A stretch of DNA of 43,252 bases from a virus: positions 1 to 43,252 of IMG/VR virus record IMGVR_UViG_3300003155_000004; one strand, given 5' to 3'. Positions within the stretch are counted from its first letter, which is position 1. Each line of letters starts with the position of its first letter. Position numbers and translations under genes: made by a program. Under the pieces are notes generated by a model that saw nothing but the letters and a program-made list of their open reading frames with translations, did no database searches and was not told where the DNA came from. Positions 15,501-42,085 of this stretch are shown in pieces.

Positions 15501-16539
15501 CGACGGCGGCGTACAACTGTCCACGGAACAGCTGTTATCAAATATGCAGAGCCAGATTGACGGCGTGACGACGTGGGAGCAGAATCTATCCACCCTGGCT
15601 GACCGCGGGATCAATCAGGGACTGCTTCAGAAACTGGCAGAGATGGGACCGCAGGGAGCTGGATACGTCCAGACATTTTCGAACATGACGGAAAGCGAAC
15701 TGTCAAAAGCAAATGACTTGTGGGGCCAGAGCATCGATATTAAGGGCATGACAAATGACTGGGGGCAGCAGCTTCTCGAATCCGGCGCGGCAAACATTGC
15801 CGGTGGAATGTCGAATCTTACGCCGTTAATGGAAGCGAGCGGAGCCAATACGGTCATGGGACTTGTCAGAGGAATGCAGCAGGCTCAGGCGGCCGCGGAA
15901 GCACAGGGAAATGATCTTGGAGTGAAGCTGATCGACTCCATAGATGACGGACTTGGAGTACAGTCACCATCCAGAAAGACGACGCAGTCAGGAAGATATG
16001 TAGATCAGGGGCTCGCAAACGGAATGAACACCGGAAAGCCTGTAGTACAGAATGCTGCGCGCAGCGTTGCAACAGCAGTGACGGATCAAATGTCATCCTC
16101 GCTCAGCTTCGTCAAATTTAAGGGAATAGGCGGAAGAGTACCGGATGGGCTCGCGTCAGGCATCAGAGCAGGAAAATCAGAGGTGATATCTGCGGCATCA
16201 GAAGTCGCATCAGATGCGATAAAAGCTGCAAATGATAAGCTGGAAATCCATTCGCCATCTCACGTGTTTCGAAGAATGGGTTCGAATACCATGGATTCGT
16301 ACGCACTTGGCGTAAAAGATAGGAAGGCAAGCGTTGAAAGAACGGTAAAGGGAGCTGTAGATTTCAGCGATATAAGAGGGACGATGGGAAGTTATGGCGC
16401 ATCTGCATCAAGAAATGAACAGAGGGCACTGGCGGGAATGCTCGCAGAAGCTATGAAAAGCGTGAAGTTCTCTGTATATCTGGGAGACAGAGAGGTTACA
16501 AGAGCTCTATCAGGAATGAAGGTGATGTTTAGTGCTTAG
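12541..16539 (+). CDS. tail tape measure protein
   Basis: 1332 aa with a coiled-coil N-terminus, a central hydrophobic Ala/Thr-rich segment, and a position after the G/GT chaperones. Confidence 0.92.
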   Translation: MPSKKIGAYITLDGEKEFRAATTACNKSLATMKSEMKLVEAQTAGSANSLGTLQKKHEVLSRTLDEQKQKEAAVSAGLKHAQEDYERVGSELENYRKKLEQARSTLDDMKQSSETTEEALNNQSEQVEQLESIVSKGEQTYQRAGNRVNDWQKQLNNAEAQTIRATKALNENAAYMKEAESATDGYAKSIDGFGNKVDDTADKLTSFGTILKTNLTNTAIDFGKDTFKSAVQGTLELEDAQKKLQASTGATTQATKEYSSEMQDLYSEGFGDSITDAADAMALVKQYTNETDPSKIKELAESGIALEDTFGMDLSESIRGADALMRNMGLTAEEAFGYIAAGAQNGLNKSGELTDNLAEYSQLWGQAGFSAEEMFTILQNGLDSGAYNLDKVNDYVKEFGISLSDGRIEENLGAFSSNTQELFHQWKNGGATTKQVFQSVISDLASMENQQQALTIASNTWSSLGEDNAMKVITSLNNVNNTYKNVRGTMEEVKNIRYDSVANQWKSLGRTFQTDVMSPMLQEFLPAAKSGLKFLTDNIDGIATAAKVATPIVAGMFAVKKGNEITKLLKDTQKNIKGVITWVTAHTVAKTAETAAETANTAAQGANTTATVAGTAATTAHSVVTTAATAAQTAFNAALMANPAGVVLVGITALVGGIALLSGAIEETTTKTDELTEAADKSIERIDAAAQSLEESTQGWSDSLSSLKAQEGVADNLVTELYNLEAQSGKTDAQIGRMNTIVGELNSMFPDLSLSINENTGALSANEQQTRRSIDAALEMSKASAAQEKMADIADDLVEAEMAKYEAEQNLKDIGDELTALDDERNRILEESAEAAKKGTEAYVEYNGEMLTSQDALMAISEAEGTLLDKRKEQQESLDGLTEKYNEANSQYQSAYEYTQNLTDGTAANTEATNQNTEAKQANADAEAAKQGASAASIEVLGEETAAYQNLSATQQQLAVDVTNGVLTMQENVQSALESQMNMFEQFDGGVQLSTEQLLSNMQSQIDGVTTWEQNLSTLADRGINQGLLQKLAEMGPQGAGYVQTFSNMTESELSKANDLWGQSIDIKGMTNDWGQQLLESGAANIAGGMSNLTPLMEASGANTVMGLVRGMQQAQAAAEAQGNDLGVKLIDSIDDGLGVQSPSRKTTQSGRYVDQGLANGMNTGKPVVQNAARSVATAVTDQMSSSLSFVKFKGIGGRVPDGLASGIRAGKSEVISAASEVASDAIKAANDKLEIHSPSHVFRRMGSNTMDSYALGVKDRKASVERTVKGAVDFSDIRGTMGSYGASASRNEQRALAGMLAEAMKSVKFSVYLGDREVTRALSGMKVMFSA

Positions 16540-17383
16540 ATATGTAAGCGGGAGTACAGGAGAAGAAATAAATCTTACGGAAAATCATATAAAAGCACAC
16601 ATTAAAACAGCGGGACTTTACGATTACGAATATGATATTGATGAAATCGATACGGTAAACAGCGTTGAGGTGGAGCGGTTCTATCTGAAGTCAAAACAAT
16701 ACGACCTCATACTGGACTTCAGAGGGAACGGGGAAGAACGCGCAGAGGCGGCAGAGAAATTCTTCACGATAGCAAATAGAGATGTTGTATACAAGAAGAT
16801 TGGAAAACTGTATTTCAAAGACCAGTACTTGAACTGCTATATCGTGGGTTCGCAATACGAAAACGCTGAGAGGGCGAGAATCGTCAGAAAAACGATGGGA
16901 GTATACGCTCCGAAGCCAATCTGGATAACAGAAGCAAGTCGTTCCTTCACGAAGATCAGCGGATCAGGAGAGACGGAAGAGTACCTGGACTACGAATATG
17001 ACTATGATTACGACTACACTATGCCGTATGGCGGTGACGTAATCTGGAAGGTAGACCATTATGCACCCTGCGAGTATGAGATGATCATATATGGTCCCTG
17101 CGTGGATCCGCGCGTGGTGATCAACGGACATATCTATCAGGTGTTTGCGACACTTGACGAGAACGACTACGCGAAGATCAACAGCCGTGAAAATTCTGTT
17201 GTGCAGTATCTCGCAAACGGAACACAGCGGGATCTCTATGATTACCGGGTAAAGATAACCGGATCACTGTTCGAGCCGATCTCGCCCGGAAATGTACGGG
17301 TAGTGTGGTCGGGAGAGTTCGGATTTGATCTGACACTATTCTGCGAGAGGAGTGAGCCGAGATGGAAGACCCAAGGCAGTTAA
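16532..17383 (+). CDS. distal tail protein (Dit-like)
   Basis: 283 aa immediately after the tape measure gene, with a GTG start overlapping its end. Confidence 0.7.
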   Translation: MLRYVSGSTGEEINLTENHIKAHIKTAGLYDYEYDIDEIDTVNSVEVERFYLKSKQYDLILDFRGNGEERAEAAEKFFTIANRDVVYKKIGKLYFKDQYLNCYIVGSQYENAERARIVRKTMGVYAPKPIWITEASRSFTKISGSGETEEYLDYEYDYDYDYTMPYGGDVIWKVDHYAPCEYEMIIYGPCVDPRVVINGHIYQVFATLDENDYAKINSRENSVVQYLANGTQRDLYDYRVKITGSLFEPISPGNVRVVWSGEFGFDLTLFCERSEPRWKTQGS

Positions 17384-18369
17384 TCCTTGCCGATCAGAAC
17401 CTACGTGATATCCGGCCGGTGATGGATGCAGACATCGACTTTGCGGTTGGAGCGGATGAAAATGACTATGAGATCAAGATCCGGCGTGACCTGTGGGATG
17501 AGCGGTATGTATATGGGAATATATTCTATATTAAGAATACGGAATTCGGCGGGATTATCGGAAGAAAAAAGATCAATACCGCAGAAGACACAATATCCCT
17601 GTACGGCCGGACGTGGCGCGGGAAGCTGGATAAGAAGATTATCCGGCCGCCGGCCGGTCAGGATTACCGGAAAGTATCCGGAGAGCTGAATACAGTGTTG
17701 AATACGCTTGTTACGGAGCAATTCAATGATTATTTTGTCGTATCCCAGAATGACACTGGAGTAACCGTGACGAATTATCAGTTCGACCGGTACTGTACAC
17801 TGCTATCTGGAATCACGAAGATGCTGAAAAGCGTCGGATACAAGTTACATATCGAATACATCCAGCAGGAACGGGGGCAGCCGGGATACGCGGAACTGTC
17901 TGCAGTGCCGATCGTGGACTACTCAGAGCGTCTCGAGCTGTCGCAGGACAGCCGGCTGAATTTCGTTTTCGACGAGGTGAAGAACGGTGTCAATCATCTG
18001 ATCTGCCTCGGAAAAGGCGAATTGCAGGATCGGCAGGTCATTGACCTGTATGTCGGCCAGAACGGTAGTATCGGAACAACGCAGTATTATACCGGGATAC
18101 AGGAAGTCGCAGAGACTTATGAGGACACATCATCGGAAAGCGATGAACTGGAAGAGAAAGGCCGGGAGAAGCTGCAGGAGCTCATGAACTCAACCTCGTT
18201 TTCGATGGACGTTGAAAGCTTGGGCATGGAAGTTGAAATCGGAGACATTATCGGCGGCCGGGATTATGTAACGGGTATGTATGCGGCGAAGCCGATTGCA
18301 AAGAAAATATACAAGGTATCAGGCGGAAAAGTATCGCTTGAATATGAAATTGAAGGAGATGATAGTTAA
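17362..18369 (+). CDS. tail-associated hub protein (Tal-like, Sipho_Gp37-like)
   Basis: 335 aa, third gene after the tape measure gene. The call rests on pattern and synteny only. Confidence 0.65.
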   Translation: MEDPRQLILADQNLRDIRPVMDADIDFAVGADENDYEIKIRRDLWDERYVYGNIFYIKNTEFGGIIGRKKINTAEDTISLYGRTWRGKLDKKIIRPPAGQDYRKVSGELNTVLNTLVTEQFNDYFVVSQNDTGVTVTNYQFDRYCTLLSGITKMLKSVGYKLHIEYIQQERGQPGYAELSAVPIVDYSERLELSQDSRLNFVFDEVKNGVNHLICLGKGELQDRQVIDLYVGQNGSIGTTQYYTGIQEVAETYEDTSSESDELEEKGREKLQELMNSTSFSMDVESLGMEVEIGDIIGGRDYVTGMYAAKPIAKKIYKVSGGKVSLEYEIEGDDS

Positions 18370-19202
18370 TGGAACTGGTAACAGGACGTGCGGGGAGCCC
18401 GCATATTACAGCACAGCAGGACAGACAGCTCCATCAGGGCATCTGGGGCGAGGAGGCGTATATCCTTGCGACAGGAAATCAGCTCGAGCCGGAAGTACAG
18501 AGCTCAAATAAAATACTGATCAAAGACGGCGCTCTGATGTTTCAGGGTGCTCTTTTTTCGGTGAAAGTAGGGACTACAGATGAGATTACGATCAATAATG
18601 GAAATCAGGGGATGCAGAGGAAAGATCTGGTCGTTGCCCGGTATACATATGATTCAGCGCGGCAGGAAGAATCCGCAGAATGGGTTGTGATTCAGGGAAC
18701 ACCGGCTGCAAGCAATCCGGTGGCGCCGGAGGGAACGAGCGGAGACATACAGGCGGGAGATTCCACGGTGGACTGCCCGTTTATGGTTGTGAACCTGAAC
18801 GGGATCAATGTCACCGGGGTTGACATTATTCCGGAGAAGATACCGACACTTCCTGATTTAATTGGTAAATTACAGGATAGCGGATGGATTGAAATGACGT
18901 CATCTATATCATTTGCAGAAAAACCGGCGTTCCGGAAGATTGGAAAAACAGTATACGTTATGGGGACAATACGTTATTCAGACAATGGTATTTTCCGTAA
19001 TGATGAGATAATCGGGGATATACCGTCCGAATTTATTCCGTCATCGTCCTACGGTACGTATGAATGTATCATTCCATTCGCTTTCATATCCGGCAATGGT
19101 TCGCGGGAACGAATGTACATCAGAGGGAATCATGTATACTTCGCAGGAACATCAAATGCTCGGGACGGGATACTTGCCGCATCGTGCTATCTCACGGATT
19201 AG
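18369..19202 (+). CDS. tail fibre / receptor-binding protein (constant N-terminal part plus AT-rich C-terminal tip A)
   Basis: 277 aa. GC falls from about 55% to about 38% at roughly 18840. The tip has W...FRK.G..VYV.GTI...IG.IP motifs. Confidence 0.7.
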   Translation: MELVTGRAGSPHITAQQDRQLHQGIWGEEAYILATGNQLEPEVQSSNKILIKDGALMFQGALFSVKVGTTDEITINNGNQGMQRKDLVVARYTYDSARQEESAEWVVIQGTPAASNPVAPEGTSGDIQAGDSTVDCPFMVVNLNGINVTGVDIIPEKIPTLPDLIGKLQDSGWIEMTSSISFAEKPAFRKIGKTVYVMGTIRYSDNGIFRNDEIIGDIPSEFIPSSSYGTYECIIPFAFISGNGSRERMYIRGNHVYFAGTSNARDGILAASCYLTD

Positions 19203-19526
19203 CTATATCCCGAAACATTCTGAGAACCAGATCGGTGATGTTGTCGAGGGAATATCCTGGAAAGATATGATATATATTCCGCCGTCTGCACGAACATCCA
19301 CGTACAATCGCGAATCAGTCAACTGATACCTGCGTGCGTACGGGGGACGAGCTCCCTCCGGCAATGTTCCGACCCTATATCCAGTCTGCCCAGAAAAACC
19401 AGAACCGTCGATAGTGCCCTGAACATATATCTCTGTCATATATTTATTTTTACGGTAGCGAGACGTCAGACCTATGTTGGCTCCGAGATAAGTCCAATCA
19501 CTCCATGCCAAAGACGCATTTAACAC
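19203..19526 (-). CDS. inverted, signal-less alternative tail-fibre tip cassette (tip B)
   Basis: 107 open codons on the minus strand fill an otherwise empty 351-bp gap. There is no SD or ATG. The product aligns in register with the last ~116 aa of 18369..19202. Confidence 0.5.
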   Translation of the reverse strand: MLNASLAWSDWTYLGANIGLTSRYRKNKYMTEIYVQGTIDGSGFSGQTGYRVGTLPEGARPPYARRYQLTDSRLYVDVRADGGIYIISFQDIPSTTSPIWFSECFGI

Positions 19527-19553
19527 ATAGATTCTCGAAGAAAGGATGATTAT

Positions 19554-20240
19554 ATGAAGATTATTTTTAATGATGCAACAGAGATCACCGTCCAGCAGGT
19601 AGAGCCGCAGGGCGATTATCTGCGCGTGCTGACGGTAGGAAATACTCCTGAGCAGCTCAAGGTGCTGTTTACTGACTCGTCCCGTACATCTCGTATGATT
19701 GTACAGGAGCGTGGACAGACGATTACCACGTATGAGGGATATACGGCGTTTTACAGGACAGAAATCTATACAGGAAAGATTTACGGCGTCGTGATGTACA
19801 AGCCGGAGAAAACCCCGGAAGTGCAGTCAACAATGGTACAGGCAGCGGTCACTGTTGCGCAGATTCAGGCACAGAACCTGACGGAAGAGCAGGCTCTTAC
19901 CGTAAAAGATATCTACCCTGTATGGGATGGGAATGGTGTGTCATATCAGAAAGACTTCTATCTGACACATAATGGAAAGCTGTACAAGGTTCTGCAGGCG
20001 CATACGTCGCAGACAGACTGGGCGCCGGATACAGCACCGTCCCTCTTCGCAGAGGTGCTTCCGGGACAGAGCGGTACCGGGATCGGAGAGTGGGTACAGC
20101 CCGGATCTACAAACCCGTATATGGCAGGGGACCGCGTGACGCACAACGGCAAGACTTGGGAATCCTTAGTGGATAACAATGTATGGGAGCCCGGTGCACA
20201 GGGATCAGAAGCACTGTGGCAGGAAGTAGAAACGGAATAA
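19554..20240 (+). CDS. tail-fibre-module protein with two CBM5/12-like carbohydrate-binding motifs
   Basis: RBS GAAAGGATGA. Motifs: YKVLQAHTSQTDWAPDTAPSLFAEV and GDRVTHNGKTWESLVDNNVWEPG. Confidence 0.7.
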   Translation: MKIIFNDATEITVQQVEPQGDYLRVLTVGNTPEQLKVLFTDSSRTSRMIVQERGQTITTYEGYTAFYRTEIYTGKIYGVVMYKPEKTPEVQSTMVQAAVTVAQIQAQNLTEEQALTVKDIYPVWDGNGVSYQKDFYLTHNGKLYKVLQAHTSQTDWAPDTAPSLFAEVLPGQSGTGIGEWVQPGSTNPYMAGDRVTHNGKTWESLVDNNVWEPGAQGSEALWQEVETE

Positions 20241-20256
20241 GAAAGGCGGGTAGCAT

Positions 20257-20574
20257 ATGCGGACATTAAAATTTGTTGTAAATGCTCAGAAGATCAGTCC
20301 AGATCCAAACCGTGACTTTTCAGGCATCGCTCCGGGGACATCCGGATACTTAAAGGCGCAATTCTCTTTCTCTGCTGAATGGTCGGGCCTGGTAAAAGTG
20401 GCGGAGTTCCGAAAGTACCTGTGCGATGAGCCAGTATCTGTACCGATTATCAACGGCGAGTGCGCTGTTCCGGACACAGTTACCGGAGGTAAAGCATGGT
20501 ACGTAAAGATTGTCGGAAAAAGAGGGGGCGTAATAATCCCAACAGGAAATTGCAAAGTGGAGCAGGAGGGGTGA
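20257..20574 (+). CDS. hypothetical tail-module protein
   Basis: 105 aa, tightly packed between fibre genes. Confidence 0.65.
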   Translation: MRTLKFVVNAQKISPDPNRDFSGIAPGTSGYLKAQFSFSAEWSGLVKVAEFRKYLCDEPVSVPIINGECAVPDTVTGGKAWYVKIVGKRGGVIIPTGNCKVEQEG

Positions 20575-20575
20575 C

Positions 20576-21871
20576 ATGGCAACGACAGAAGAATTATTAG
20601 CACAGCTTGAAGCAGAAGCCCAGAGTGAAACGCCGGTCTGCGTCATTGATCCTGAGACACGAACGATCACTGTTCCGCCGGAGTATCAACTCTTAGGAGT
20701 CGAGAACGATAAGCTGGTGGAGCGGATTCCGTTTCAGTGCCCGAAGATCGTTGGAGACAACAAAGATTTATCACAGGATTTCATACTATTTATCAACTAT
20801 GTCAATGCCAACGGCGACCCTGACGCATATAAGATAGAAGATATGCAGGTGGATGGAGACAATATCACTTTTTCATGGTTGCTGGAAGAGAAGGCAACAC
20901 TGTATCAGGGGGATATCCAGATTTCATTTTGCGGCATCATCCCCGGAGATGAAATTGATGATCCTGACAAGAATCGTTGGGGCACTACAATCAACACTGA
21001 TTGCACTGTTTTGACCGGTTTGAAATGCACACAGCAGGTTGCAGAGAGCAATCCGGATGCGCTGGCGCAGATCTGGGCGGCGATCGATGAACTGAAAGCC
21101 GGCGGCGGTGGAAGCGGCACACCCGGGAAAGATGGAGTTGGAATTGACAGGATAGAAAAGACAAGCACACAAGGACTTGTCGATACATACACCATTTATT
21201 TGACAGATGATAGAACCTATACATTCACTGTGACAAACGGAAAAGACGGAAATCCGGGAGCAAAAGGCGATCCCGGAGAGGATGGAATCACTCCGACCAT
21301 CGGAGAAAATGGGAACTGGTATCTGGGAGATGAGGATACCGGGAAGCCGAGCCGGGGAGAGAAAGGCAACCCCGGAGACAAAGGAGATCCGGGAGATAAA
21401 GGAGACCCTGGGCAGACCGGAGCGACTCCGAATATCCAGATCGGAACCGTTCAGACGCTTGATCCCGGACAGCAGGCGACAGCGAGCATGACGGGAACGC
21501 CGGAGAATCCGCTGTTGAATCTGGGGATTCCGCAAGGAGATAAGGGAGACCCGGGAGAAGATGCTGAAAGTGGTAGTTCAGCCACACCCCGGCAGGAAAT
21601 GACTTCTTCTGACACCACAGTAACACTCGAACCGAATAAGCTGTATGTCTTTCCGGAAATGGCAAGCCTGACCGTGACGCTGACAGAGCCAAGCGATACA
21701 AATGTGTCCAATGAATATCACTTCTTTTTCACCTCTGGAGCCACGGCCACAACCTTGACTCTGAACGATGTTCTGTCAGATGCGTACAGTATAGAAGCAA
21801 ACATGAAGTATGAGGTAAGCATTCTGGAAAATGTGGCGTACATCAAGGGGGTGTCGATGAGTGAGACGTAG
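20576..21871 (+). CDS. tail fibre protein with collagen-like G-X-Y repeats
   Basis: 431 aa with GKDGNPGAKGDPGEDG ... GEKGNPGDKGDPGDKGDPGQTG ... GDKGDPGED. Confidence 0.8.
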   Translation: MATTEELLAQLEAEAQSETPVCVIDPETRTITVPPEYQLLGVENDKLVERIPFQCPKIVGDNKDLSQDFILFINYVNANGDPDAYKIEDMQVDGDNITFSWLLEEKATLYQGDIQISFCGIIPGDEIDDPDKNRWGTTINTDCTVLTGLKCTQQVAESNPDALAQIWAAIDELKAGGGGSGTPGKDGVGIDRIEKTSTQGLVDTYTIYLTDDRTYTFTVTNGKDGNPGAKGDPGEDGITPTIGENGNWYLGDEDTGKPSRGEKGNPGDKGDPGDKGDPGQTGATPNIQIGTVQTLDPGQQATASMTGTPENPLLNLGIPQGDKGDPGEDAESGSSATPRQEMTSSDTTVTLEPNKLYVFPEMASLTVTLTEPSDTNVSNEYHFFFTSGATATTLTLNDVLSDAYSIEANMKYEVSILENVAYIKGVSMSET

Positions 21872-22328
21872 GATGATGATGGATACGGAAGGAGATGAGG
21901 ATATGAAAGAATGGCAGTTATTTAAAACGATAGATTTCTCCAATGAAGATGAGCAGTTGGAATTTGCTGGTGTAGATTTTTCGGATATTTTTATTATAGC
22001 AACAGGCCTTTGTCATACCAAAGAATCAATAAATAGTGGAATGGATATCAAAATTAACGATAATGTGGTAGCTAAGATGAACACACAGCCGGTCAATGGT
22101 TCAAATACCAGAAATCAGCAACTCTTGCTCAGGTATAATGGATTATTCTGGGAGCAAACATTAATGCCACAATCAAATAATGAATTGAGTTATTACACTT
22201 CGTACAGCATTAAGCAAGCACCGTATTCTGCTATGCTCAATGTAGGTAAGTGCGAAAAACTGGCTTTTTCAGAATCATCATTATTATATCCTATAAGCTC
22301 CGGAACACTCAAAATATATGCAAGATAG
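21861..22328 (+). CDS. AT-rich fibre-module protein, N-terminus VRRRMMMD (alternative start ATG 21903)
   Basis: 155-codon ORF at about 33-35% GC. The GTG start overlaps the fibre gene end. A better RBS (AAGGAGA) precedes ATG 21903. Confidence 0.6.
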   Translation: MRRRMMMDTEGDEDMKEWQLFKTIDFSNEDEQLEFAGVDFSDIFIIATGLCHTKESINSGMDIKINDNVVAKMNTQPVNGSNTRNQQLLLRYNGLFWEQTLMPQSNNELSYYTSYSIKQAPYSAMLNVGKCEKLAFSESSLLYPISSGTLKIYAR

Positions 22329-22358: not shown

Positions 22359-22469
22359 ATGACAGCACAGCACAGCACAGCAAAAAACAGCACAGCACAG
22401 CACAGCACACAGGATTGTAATCTGACCGGAATAGCCTGTCAAGTCCCGGAGGTGATGCTATGTCACTGA
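22359..22469 (+). CDS. possible 36-aa leader-type sORF containing the ACAGC repeat
   Basis: ATG 11 nt after AAAGGAGAG. Encodes MTAQHSTAKNSTAQHSTQDCNLTGIACQVPEVMLCH. Its stop at 22467-22469 overlaps the next gene's ATG (22460). Confidence 0.3.
   Translation: MTAQHSTAKNSTAQHSTQDCNLTGIACQVPEVMLCH
22362..22410. repeat. pentanucleotide microsatellite (ACAGC)4-AAAAA-(ACAGC)4-ACAC
   Basis: Direct reading: block 1 at 22362..22381, A run at 22382..22386, block 2 at 22387..22406. Confidence 0.95.
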
Positions 22470-22876
22470 TGCGGAGGCGGGCAATGATGGAATGCAAGAA
22501 GGAATATGCAGGGACGCTGTATATAGATGCAGGGTTTCTTGGCGGACAGGTGCGATACGATGGAACTCCAGTATATAATGCACAATATCCGAATGCATGG
22601 GCGACGACATATGCGCCGGTTGCATTGGGAGACATTGTAAGTTGTGATGAATTAACTGCTTATAGTGACAAAGTACGAATAAGGCAGTACTATACATACG
22701 GAAATATGACATCAAACAGAGATGGTGGTGCGAAAATCACCATTAAAGAGCAAGGCGTAGGGTATATAAGACTCATGGTAATTGATGAAGTTAGTGAACA
22801 GCAAATTCCGAAGGAGATGACCGTAACCCATGCAGACGGAACAGTAGACACCTATAAAATCATAGACAGGAGATGA
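22460..22876 (+). CDS. fibre-module protein, N-terminus MSLMRRRAMME
   Basis: RBS GGAGGTGA. 138 aa. It shares the RRR-x-MM N-terminal motif with the preceding gene. Confidence 0.7.
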   Translation: MSLMRRRAMMECKKEYAGTLYIDAGFLGGQVRYDGTPVYNAQYPNAWATTYAPVALGDIVSCDELTAYSDKVRIRQYYTYGNMTSNRDGGAKITIKEQGVGYIRLMVIDEVSEQQIPKEMTVTHADGTVDTYKIIDRR

Positions 22877-26419: not shown

Positions 26420-26665
26420 TTGCATCGTATTGCATTTCATATTGCATTGTGTTGCATAATGTTATAAAAATTCTAATATTTGAGAATTATTATTAAATAA
26501 CTAAAATCAAGAAAACCGCGTATTTACGGGATTTATCGGCATTTCCCATAAACTCACGGTTTCTTAAAATACTGGAGTATACGGGATTCGAACAGACTCA
26601 CTAAACCGCTATAAACCGCGTATTTAGTGGGTTTGTGAAATTCCGTTTTGCATTTCATATTGCAT
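26420..26665. other. attP region (core plus arm-type repeats)
   Basis: AT-rich and adjacent to the integrase 3' end. TTGCAT occurs six times (26420, 26430, 26442, 26452, 26648, 26660). AAACCGCGTATTTA occurs twice, exactly 100 bp apart (26513, 26613), flanking the tRNA-like core. Confidence 0.7.
26573..26593 (-). other. tRNA 3'-end mimic (putative attP core)
   Basis: The minus strand reads GTTCGAATCCCGTATACTCCA: T-loop TTCGAAT, T-stem 3' half, a 7-nt acceptor 3' strand and a discriminator. The 5' T-stem partner is absent, so this is only a gene fragment. Confidence 0.65.
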
Positions 26666-27712
26666 ATCGTTCTGTAATTCTGAGAAGTGAGCCATAATCT
26701 GTTTATTAAATTTGGCAGCTTCGTCAGATATTTCCCCGAAATATACCCTCTTCATAACATTGTCCGTTGCCCAGCCTCCCCGCGCCATTATGTATTGATC
26801 CGGTATGTTCATAGCATGGAGAATGGAAGCGCAGTAGTGGCGCAGGTCATGAAAGCGAAAGTGCGGCAGTCCGGAAAAGCGGATCGCCCTGTTGAAACGG
26901 CTTGATATTTGCCCGGGAGTAGCCTTAACGATTTCACCTTTGATACCGCTGATCCGCGCAATTACAAAGTCTGGCATAACGATGATCCGGTTACTAGAGT
27001 CTGTCTTGGGAGAATGTTTCAGTACCCATTTATTATTCCTATCCAGAACATATACTTTGTTTACCGATACTGTATTCCCGATAATGTCCTGATCAGTCAG
27101 CGCGCAGATCTCTCCGCGCCGCATCGGCCCGAATGCTGCAAGCAGAATCGCTATCTCAAGCTCCTTCCCCTGTACGTGCTGGAGCAGGCGCTTCACGTCC
27201 GCATCTGACGGAGTATACAGCTTTTTTCTTTGATTCTGTGGCAGAGACACAGAAAAGTGCGCTCCCGGTATGAACATATCCAATGTGGCAGAGATCAGGC
27301 CGTAAATATTCCGTACAGTCTTTGGCGTCCGTCCGACAGAGAGCTTTTGGATCCAGAGCTGCAGATCTTCCGAAGTGAGATCCCTCAGTTCAATCTGGCT
27401 GATATCGTCGAGGTAATTCCGCAGGATGCTCTGGTATCCCCGGATTGTTGCCGGTGATAGAACTCCGTCCTTGGAATCAATATACTTTTGCACTGCCTCG
27501 ATTACTTTGATCCGATCCGGTCGTTTCATCCGGTTCTTTTCGTGGGCAAACAACGCTGCCTGTGCCTGCACAGCCTTTTTGTCATATCCGGTAAATGATT
27601 CATATACGCGGTGTTCATCCCACGCTTTTTTATCAGGATTCCAAGTCCGTTCAGTGTGGCTGTACACCTGACAATGCCATGATCCGGATGGGAGCTTTTT
27701 GACTTTTGGCAT
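26624..27712 (-). CDS. int: tyrosine recombinase integrase
   Basis: ATG 8 nt after AAGGAGA (MPKVKKLPSGSW...). Catalytic pattern: MRRGEICAL (R), FRFHDLRHYCAS (H-x-x-R ... H), GGWATDNVMKRVYF (Y). Confidence 0.92.
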   Translation of the reverse strand: MPKVKKLPSGSWHCQVYSHTERTWNPDKKAWDEHRVYESFTGYDKKAVQAQAALFAHEKNRMKRPDRIKVIEAVQKYIDSKDGVLSPATIRGYQSILRNYLDDISQIELRDLTSEDLQLWIQKLSVGRTPKTVRNIYGLISATLDMFIPGAHFSVSLPQNQRKKLYTPSDADVKRLLQHVQGKELEIAILLAAFGPMRRGEICALTDQDIIGNTVSVNKVYVLDRNNKWVLKHSPKTDSSNRIIVMPDFVIARISGIKGEIVKATPGQISSRFNRAIRFSGLPHFRFHDLRHYCASILHAMNIPDQYIMARGGWATDNVMKRVYFGEISDEAAKFNKQIMAHFSELQNDMQYEMQNGISQTH

Positions 27713-27844
27713 GGTAATCATCTCCTTTATGGTATAAAAATGACAGCCAGACAATGAACGGATGTTCTGGATTGTGTGGCTGCCCCGAAGATGATACAAT
27801 ATTCTTGGAACGTACTGTAGTATCTTCGGAGCTATGGTCTATCG

Positions 27845-41333: not shown

Positions 41334-41723
41334 ATGCTTCCGGCCGGAAAGACGAAGAAAGAGGTTGCGCTGCAGCTGGCAGCACAGGGGAAGACAACTG
41401 CGGAGATCGCGAAAGAGACAGGATGGGCTTATAACACAGTGTATTACTATCTGAATCCGGACAAGTGTAAGCCGAAGAAACAGACTGACATCATCCCTGT
41501 GGATTACAGGAATCCCGATGCACGCCCGGGATGGAATGCCGATCGGAGGAAGTGCAAGACCTGCCAGTACCGTCAGGCGCACAACAATCCGACTGATCTG
41601 AATAAGGGGAATTGCAATTACATTGAGATTGTCGGGCATAGCCGTGGATGCGCTGTGGAGGACTGTGATCGGTACGTGAAGGGGGCAATTATGAGAAAGG
41701 AGCGGAAATGGATAGACAGGTAA
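41334..41723 (+). CDS. HTH plus Cys-rich (zinc-binding-like) regulator
   Basis: ATG after GGAGGTGAG. KKEVALQLAAQGKTTAEIAKETGWAYNTVYYYL HTH, followed by KCKTCQY...GNCNY...GC..EDCDRY. Confidence 0.7.
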   Translation: MLPAGKTKKEVALQLAAQGKTTAEIAKETGWAYNTVYYYLNPDKCKPKKQTDIIPVDYRNPDARPGWNADRRKCKTCQYRQAHNNPTDLNKGNCNYIEIVGHSRGCAVEDCDRYVKGAIMRKERKWIDR

Positions 41724-42085
41724 AAGAACCCTCAGATGTTCTATCGGAATTTCTGAATTACATAGACAGGATCCGATACGACTACAAGGAGGCTTACGAT
41801 GCGGTGAAGAAAGAAGAGAAGCGTCTTCAGGATCTACTGCATGAGTTGGAGTTTGCTGAGGGAGAAAACGAGAAGCGGCGCGCCGGGACAAAGCTGCAGC
41901 AGAGCAGGCGGAATCGGCGCAGACAGAAAGATGAGATGATGCGTCTGGAGCTAGTCGTGCAGTTTTTCGATGATCCGACTCCGAAGAGTACGATCAATAA
42001 GATGCGGCAGCTTCTCGGGAAACAGAGAAAGCAGGAAGAGTTTCTGGACGGGGAGCGGCACTATAATCCCAGGGTAAGGGAGTAG
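41708..42085 (+). CDS. coiled-coil protein of unknown function
   Basis: 125 aa, with a basic RRNRRRQK segment. Confidence 0.6.
   Translation: MDRQVKEPSDVLSEFLNYIDRIRYDYKEAYDAVKKEEKRLQDLLHELEFAEGENEKRRAGTKLQQSRRNRRRQKDEMMRLELVVQFFDDPTPKSTINKMRQLLGKQRKQEEFLDGERHYNPRVRE

Follow-up and report, generated by a model that had tools for sequence, protein, structure and literature searches.

A two-head receptor-binding protein switch module, most likely locked, in a chicken-gut siphophage genome and its inverting relatives

Tail-fibre genes form a recognised class among the genes altered by programmed inversion, and the described system closest to the locus treated here is the Rin shufflon of Bifidobacterium and Eggerthella prophages, in which a constant part of a receptor-binding protein (RBP) gene is served by variable TP901-1-like head cassettes, short rix crossover sites and an armless tyrosine invertase (Mavrich et al. 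2018, PMC6109161; PMC8778435). The same work also contains a two-segment inverted locus without a flanking recombinase, for which an enzyme acting in trans was suggested (Mavrich et al. 2018, PMC6109161). Here we describe a tail-tip locus in a stretch of viral DNA of 43,252 nucleotides (IMG/VR record IMGVR_UViG_3300003155_000004, called the window throughout), where the expressed C-terminal head of a predicted RBP, tip A, stands stop to stop with a silent inverted head cassette, tip B. We consider it likely that this region is a genuine two-head RBP-tip switch module that is most likely locked in the A-on state, its recombinase gone, its two crossover sites of different classes and its sequence of mosaic origin.

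Two heads behind one constant part

The plus-strand gene at 18369..19202 encodes 277 amino acids and ends in TAG, and the minus-strand open reading frame (ORF) at 19203..19526 encodes 107 amino acids from a GTG start, with the two stop codons directly abutting (TAG/CTA, 19200-19205). The minus-strand ORF lacks a Shine-Dalgarno sequence; upstream of it the frame runs on without a stop to at least 19604 and offers no further start codons. Since position 18855 is base 1 of codon 163, inverting 18855..19526 would fuse the second head in frame, as arithmetic on the sequence confirmed. This layout and the in-frame fusion had been described accurately in a first-pass annotation made from the letters alone, which proposed that the silent ORF is the alternative tip of an inversion-type host-range switch.

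Homology searches place the boundary between the constant and variable parts exactly where that annotation had set it. The 277-amino-acid protein matches PHROGs 9994, 13141 and 25635 over only their first ~169 positions, and for most of its 977 homologues similarity to the query is confined to the first ~61%, at ~85-94% identity, with complete divergence from the same point on. The gene accordingly divides into a constant N-terminal part (18369..18854, plus strand, amino acids 1-162) and tip A (18855..19202, plus strand, amino acids 163-277 and the stop codon), the latter 95-97% identical to tip A of relatives L008, L011 and L014, in which it belongs to the set of cassettes that can invert. 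By these sequence comparisons it reads as a modular siphophage receptor-binding or distal tail protein gene, with a conserved N-part and a swappable C-terminal head.

Tip B (19203..19526, minus strand) has 107 codons and a stop and no start signals of its own. Every homologue (59-96% identity) is either a cassette or the C-terminal part of an RBP. In the annotations, those at 59-92% identity appear as short orphan ORFs whose N-termini are arbitrary and not conserved, and a first protein search with tip B returned such ORFs only; proteins of 269 amino acids, in which tip B is fused to the constant part, surfaced from the search with the full-length RBP. Silent tip B cassettes show dN/dS ratios of 0.04-0.13, with dS up to 0.8, which argues that they are selected as protein.

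The predicted structure of tip B points the same way. Its AlphaFold2 model (pLDDT 92.9, pTM 0.83) gave 24 Foldseek matches to the PDB at E<=1e-3, all of them TP901-1 or p2 RBP heads (top match 2f0c_B, E=7e-5), with query-normalised TM-scores of 0.58-0.68 at sequence identities of 14-18%, and its matches in BFVD were tail-fibre or RBP proteins. Tip B is thus modelled as a compact beta-sandwich head of the TP901-1/p2 type. The full-length RBP model was poor (pLDDT 47), and we used only its tip A portion, cautiously; this portion, of moderate to low confidence, matched RBP heads of lactococcal and Listeria phages only weakly (E 2e-3 to 1e-2), which weakly suggests the same fold for tip A. The in-register likeness of the two tips, noted at the outset from the letters, is weak when they are compared as a single pair (BLASTP 29% over 38 amino acids, E=0.022) and stands when profiles of their respective homologues are aligned, with 60 columns in register starting at the first residue of each tip (hhalign E=6.9e-5, probability 63%).

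The first-pass annotation had also read tip A as a foreign module from its base composition. The direction of the difference was right and the figures were off: estimates of 55, 38 and 50% GC for the constant part, tip A and tip B compare with measured values of 52.5, 42.5 and 47.2%, against 48.2% for the whole window. The foreign origin itself does not hold up, as tips A and B travel as a conserved pair in L008 and L011-L015.

Two classes of crossover site and natural inversion in relatives

In every sufficiently long contig, homologues of tip B adjoin a tyrosine recombinase of ~329 amino acids within the tail-fibre module. Relative L008 carries the A/B pair of the window (tip B 92%, tip A 95% identity), convergent and nearly stop to stop, bounded by a 45-nt inverted repeat and with the recombinase before the pair. 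In the closest relatives of the whole gene, L011-L014 (87-93% protein identity), the order is a 277-amino-acid gene made of the constant part and tip A, tip B on the minus strand, the recombinase on the plus strand, two further cassettes (plus, then minus) and a CBM gene. Four copies of one core sequence, TAAWTGGYRAWTTA, which we call type 1, lie in this arrangement in the orientations +,-,+,-, making it a four-cassette shufflon with its recombinase. This armless, Xer-like enzyme gave sub-threshold matches to XerA, XerC and XerD in an NCBIfam scan and is present in L001-L003, L005, L007, L008 and L011-L014. Tip B (88% identity) also occurs in L045 as the C-terminus of a 201-amino-acid protein, where a type 1 junction links it to a different N-part.

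The central bases of type 1 sites are identical within a locus and differ between loci (TGGCAA in L011, TGGTAA in L014, TGGTGA in L001 and L041), a homogeneity that resembles concerted homogenisation by recombination. Locus L041 lacks a recombinase and has a type 1 inverted repeat that is perfect over 16 nt. Separately, this two-tip phage also has an RVT_1 reverse transcriptase (6016..7158) downstream of a 563-amino-acid gene, which may belong to a diversity-generating retroelement within the tail module. In L006 (7046..7741) the recombinase beside a tip B-like cassette has only 231 amino acids, corresponding to residues 1-235 of the 329-amino-acid family, and is probably truncated; the sites nearby are a further variant (TAAATAGCAATTTA). 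Among deposited phages, Terrisporobacter phage TPELB_ph1 (L047, 17645-18640) and Clostridium phage phiCp-D (L048, 21639-22616) each have an Xer-like 'integrase' between tail genes and holin, with 30-34% identity to the shufflon recombinase, and TPELB_ph1 has a second annotated integrase elsewhere; both phages may hold unrecognised RBP inversion systems.

A second site class, type 2, has the distinct and conserved sequence TAAATGCGKCTTTGKC with the left flank ATC.AT.YG, and forms the inverted-repeat pair in two-tip loci that lack a recombinase. The repeat is 13 nt and perfect in L015 and its extended version L040, and 31 nt with 87-90% identity in L017, L018, L020 and L022-L024; L046 has type 2 cores at both ends, with 0 and 1 mismatch. 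Within 6 kb on either side of the RBP gene start we found no recombinase in the type 2 two-tip loci, and none within 10 kb downstream in L040.

Inversion at type 2 sites is directly visible in the comparison of L017 with L018, phages of the type of IMG/VR UViG_2806310958_000001 and 3300045988_044469. Their flanks are 99.3-99.98% identical over ~9.6 kb, and between them lies a precise 746-bp inversion (6486..7231), 99.6% identical in reverse; at the 31-nt inverted repeat it replaces the tip joined to the constant part by another, unrelated tip. Both states occur in a second sub-lineage as well (L025 compared with L022-L024). The flipped isoform was also found as protein: the B-on product is predicted to have 269 amino acids, and two homologues of exactly that length, P0062 and P0056, are 97.8% identical to the predicted flipped isoform of L015 (type 2) and 96.7% identical to that of L011 (type 1).

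Across the family, one crossover site lies inside the expressed gene and again, inverted, before the silent cassettes in L001, L005, L008, L011-L015, L017-L018, L020, L022-L024, L041 and L046. The original reading of tip B as the silent, inverted alternative head of an inversion-type host-range switch is supported. The junctions of the 120 closest RBP homologues were type 1 in 57 cases, type 2 in 41 and tandem type 2 plus type 1 in nine; 12 of the 120 fell outside the motif patterns, the majority resembling variants of type 1. Site class and constant-side flank go strictly together (62 type 1 flanks, 52 type 2 flanks), and wherever a switch is demonstrable or plausible, the locus holds sites of a single class.

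Because type 2 loci flip with no recombinase beside them, an enzyme acting on them in trans must exist somewhere. The phage integrase was considered for this role and rejected, since type 2-like sequence occurs nowhere else in the window or in L040. The integrase of the window, used as a query against viral contigs, returned no matches, and the type 2 loci could therefore not be linked to an integrase family.

Mismatched sites, missing recombinase and mosaic origin of the window copy

The window itself has one site of each class. At the junction of the constant part and tip A lies the type 1 core TAATTGGTAAATTA (18859..18872, plus strand), which codes for D-L-I-G-K-L-Q, has 0 mismatches to the family core, is identical to site s1 of L014 and is the sole copy in the window at <=1 mismatch. 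Before tip B, which is preceded by TTAAATGCGTCTTTGGCA, lies a type 2 site with its silent-side flank, AATCTATGTGT followed by TAAATGCGTCTTTGGC (19507..19533, minus strand), coding for I-Y-V-L-N-A-S-L-A; its core at 19507..19522 has 0 mismatches to the type 2 sequence and no second copy in the window, and the site and flank recur in L015, L046 and L041. The two cores differ at 5 of 10 central positions. If the segment 18858..19523 were flipped, the predicted junctions would read ...CTTCCTGATTTAAATGCGTCTTTGGCATGGAG... and ...AATCTATGTGTTAATTGGTAAATTACAGGATAG..., and among the 120 closest homologues no such hybrid type 1/type 2 junction was found. The early remark that no good inverted repeat flanks the segment proved correct: a search around 18855..19526 gave none that was convincing.

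The first-pass annotation had treated the lack of a visible invertase as a puzzle of a hidden enzyme. Alignment gives a simpler answer. Window positions 16001..19505 align to 3633..7137 of L014, and the window from 19554 onward aligns to L014 from 8952 onward; the ~1.8 kb that L011-L014 carry at the position of 19534..19553, with the recombinase, two cassettes and two sites, is absent. The best tblastn match of six shufflon recombinases to the window had E=0.02 and lay on the wrong strand of another gene. Pfam scans of the 37 window ORFs revealed no serine invertase (Resolvase domain), as had been noted from the start, and the lysogeny integrase at 26624..27799 (minus strand) as the sole recombinase.

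Sliding identity points to how the two site classes may have come together. Positions 18911-19205 are 100% identical to L011, positions 19256-19405 are 99% identical to both L014 and L015, and positions 19456-19555 are 94% identical to L015 and 61% to L014. Mosaicism is pervasive over 17362-19555, with more than one switch point. The region fits a mosaic of an L011/L014-like parent, with type 1 sites and a recombinase, and an L015-like parent, with type 2 sites and no recombinase. Two other routes were tried and dropped. Decay of a type 1 site after loss of the recombinase does not account for the right site, which is a member of a conserved and actively flipping second class, and a clean deletion between two direct type 1 sites does not account for the retained flank, which is type 2 specific and common to L015, L041 and L046.

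These data fit a model in which 18855..19533 is an invertible module of two convergent cassettes, with A on, B off and a short crossover site ahead of each. Recombination between the site in the expressed gene and the inverted site before the silent cassette would flip the segment and fuse the other head in frame to the constant N-part, and exchanging one TP901-1/p2-type head for another would presumably alter host range. Tyrosine recombinases generally require matching overlap regions. Given this requirement and the homogeneity of sites within each locus, we infer that the mismatched pair of the window cannot recombine productively, and the combination of non-matching cores with the lack of a cognate enzyme makes it most likely that this copy is frozen A-on. 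The earlier suggestion of a working switch in the window itself is therefore probably wrong. Tip B would persist as an intact silent cassette, re-usable only through recombination with related phages.

Several points weigh against a locked switch. The demand for identical cores is carried over from the general behaviour of tyrosine recombinases and from the uniformity of sites within loci, and some tyrosine recombinases tolerate imperfect partners. Both sites of the window share TTAAWTG, and the tips share a GATTGGA-like sequence after the site. The trans enzyme that flips type 2 loci might act here if it accepts a type 1 partner. Orientation in the window is read from assemblies, and low-frequency flipping may have occurred in the source sample. 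Finally, tip B remains fully intact, with ~99% identity to relatives along part of it; disuse is not proven, and a recent mosaic fits equally well.

The best-surviving alternative is that the switch is still active, with a trans recombinase from the host or a co-resident shufflon prophage inverting 18858..19523 by TTAAWTG micro-homology or relaxed recognition. The type 2 two-tip loci that flip with no recombinase within 6 kb on either side of the RBP gene start, the lack of one within 10 kb downstream in L040, the perfect repeat kept in recombinase-less L041 and the trans invertase already proposed for a similar phage locus (Mavrich et al. 2018) all speak for it. We nevertheless regard continued activity as unlikely: neither site of the window has a matching partner, the cores differ at half of their central positions where sites within any one active locus are identical, hybrid junction proteins number zero among the 120 closest homologues, and a single orientation was recovered in all three assemblies that contain the region.

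Those assemblies also bear on whether the hybrid of site classes is real. In a metagenome, two co-existing strains with matched sites could have been joined by the assembler within a shared stretch of ~150 nt, and the segment 19256-19405, 99% identical to L014 and to L015, does exceed the k=127 of the source assembly. Yet the exact sequence of the region was present in three chicken-gut metagenome assemblies from different pipelines, a 43,340-nt k127 contig, a 4,240-nt NODE contig (coverage 23) and a Logan contig, at 99.96-100% identity across the region and in one orientation throughout. Because these three agree over the whole region, a strain chimera is very unlikely, and mosaicism runs across 17362-19555 instead of being limited to one switch point.

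The weakest alternative, that 19203..19526 is an independently expressed gene or an antisense RNA driven by the minus-strand element TTGCAT-18-TATAAT, is barely credible: the element is indeed present at 19578..19549, as the first-pass annotation said, and the ORF is intact, but the -35 agrees with TTGACA at 3 of 6 positions, a consensus promoter scan did not report the element, TATAAT is missing in L011 and L014, the ORF has a GTG start and no Shine-Dalgarno sequence, its homologues receive arbitrary, non-conserved N-termini from gene callers, and tip B recurs as the C-terminus of the 269- and 201-amino-acid proteins.

Returning to the locked module, a broader and more tentative picture of the family, which we hold with low confidence, is one of two orthogonal site classes sharing a single RBP junction, type 1 served by the embedded Xer-like recombinase and type 2 by an enzyme supplied in trans by the host or a co-resident prophage. 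The hybrid in the window might then reflect a mosaic exchange that locked or re-wired the switch, and tip B could be mobilisable in a suitable lysogen.

To the right of the locus, 19534..19553 (plus strand) holds a short junction, shared with L015, and the ribosome-binding region of the next gene, which encodes a tail-associated CBM_5_12 protein (19554..20240, plus strand; Pfam CBM_5_12, E=1.3e-17) and occupies the same position in L011-L018, L020, L022-L024, L041 and L046. The window as a whole is a complete temperate siphophage genome, with small and large terminase subunits, portal, capsid, tape measure, Dit, a phrog_538 minor tail protein, the 277-amino-acid gene, the CBM_5_12 protein, a CHAP lysin, the integrase, an M78/HTH pair and a replication module. 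The operon continues downstream with 20576..21871, whose 431-amino-acid product carries collagen-like Gly-X-Y repeats and is probably a second fibre; these repeats yield many spurious overlapping minus-strand ORFs. An (ACAGC) tandem repeat of 9.6 units lies at 22362..22409, between ORFs 21861..22328 and 22460..22876. Farther away, a 125-amino-acid ORF at 41708..42085 has a sub-threshold match to the Acb2/Tad1 hairpin domain (E=7.5e-4, 20 bits against a cut-off of 27) and could be an anti-defence sponge.

Comparison with described inversion systems

Among deposited phages, megablast of 17362-20574 found no match and tblastn of the RBP found distant matches only, at <=46% identity. A scan of genome collections turned up a single related metagenome-assembled genome, of Candidatus Mediterraneibacter, at 59% identity; on this one genome, a weak basis for assignment, the host is probably a member of the Lachnospiraceae. 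We found no published account of such a system in Lachnospiraceae-type phages. In practice, the phage of the window would have a host range that is fixed and could reach its silent second head only via recombination with relatives.

For annotation, the lesson is that an antisense ORF with no start signals, lying directly against an RBP gene, can prove to be a genuine coding cassette under selection. Automated pipelines call the cassettes of the relatives short orphan genes with arbitrary starts, and similarly placed recombinases in deposited phages carry the label 'integrase'. With 977 RBP homologues, the group of gut siphophages that Rin-type, tyrosine-recombinase switching of RBPs reaches is a large one.

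The likeness to the Mu G, P1 C and shufflon segments that was proposed at first is one of kind. As in Mu G, P1 C and p15B Min, inversion in this family swaps the C-terminal part of a tail fibre or RBP behind a constant N-part, giving what are presumably alternative host ranges from one locus. Those systems, however, use serine invertases (Gin, Cin, Min), gix or cix sites and a Fis-dependent enhancer and have tail-fibre assembly genes inside the segment, whereas the relatives described here use an Xer-like tyrosine recombinase in place of a Gin/Cin/Hin-like enzyme. Neither a serine invertase, among the 37 window ORFs scanned, nor an inverted pair of ~26-bp gix- or cix-type sites was found in the window, where the sites present are of other sequence classes.

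The R64 plasmid shufflon (Rci recombinase, sfx sites, pilV) is a multi-segment system with asymmetric sites conserved mainly on one side. It resembles the family here in having several segments and a tyrosine recombinase; its target is a conjugative pilus adhesin, its site sequences are unrelated, and the recombinase of the relatives gave no match to Rci-type models in the NCBIfam scan. For the lactococcal RBPs of TP901-1 and p2, whose heads resemble the tip B model, no switching by inversion is known.

The family described here is a variant of the Rin-type phage shufflon. Like Rin, it joins a constant N-part of an RBP to several short, alternately oriented C-terminal cassettes with a TP901-1-like head, and in the relatives of the window it uses short asymmetric sites and a locus-encoded, armless, Xer-like tyrosine invertase separate from the lysogeny integrase. 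The likeness drawn is one of architecture. The site sequences differ, being TAAWTGGYRAWTTA or TAAATGCGKCTTTGKC here and TTCCCTAACCC for rix, and so do the hosts, here chicken-gut bacteria, probably Lachnospiraceae. Of the features that mark a Rin-type locus, the window retains the constant 5' part and the promoter-less inverted 3' cassette; unlike Rin, it has no matching inverted pair of crossover sites and no Xer-like invertase at the locus. Its three assemblies show one orientation, and both orientations are seen in its relatives (L017 versus L018; P0062 and P0056 versus L015 and L011). The family further differs from Rin in that its recombinase is embedded between cassette pairs, and what it adds is the use of two site classes at the same junction, sometimes in tandem, together with type 2 loci that flip without a local enzyme.

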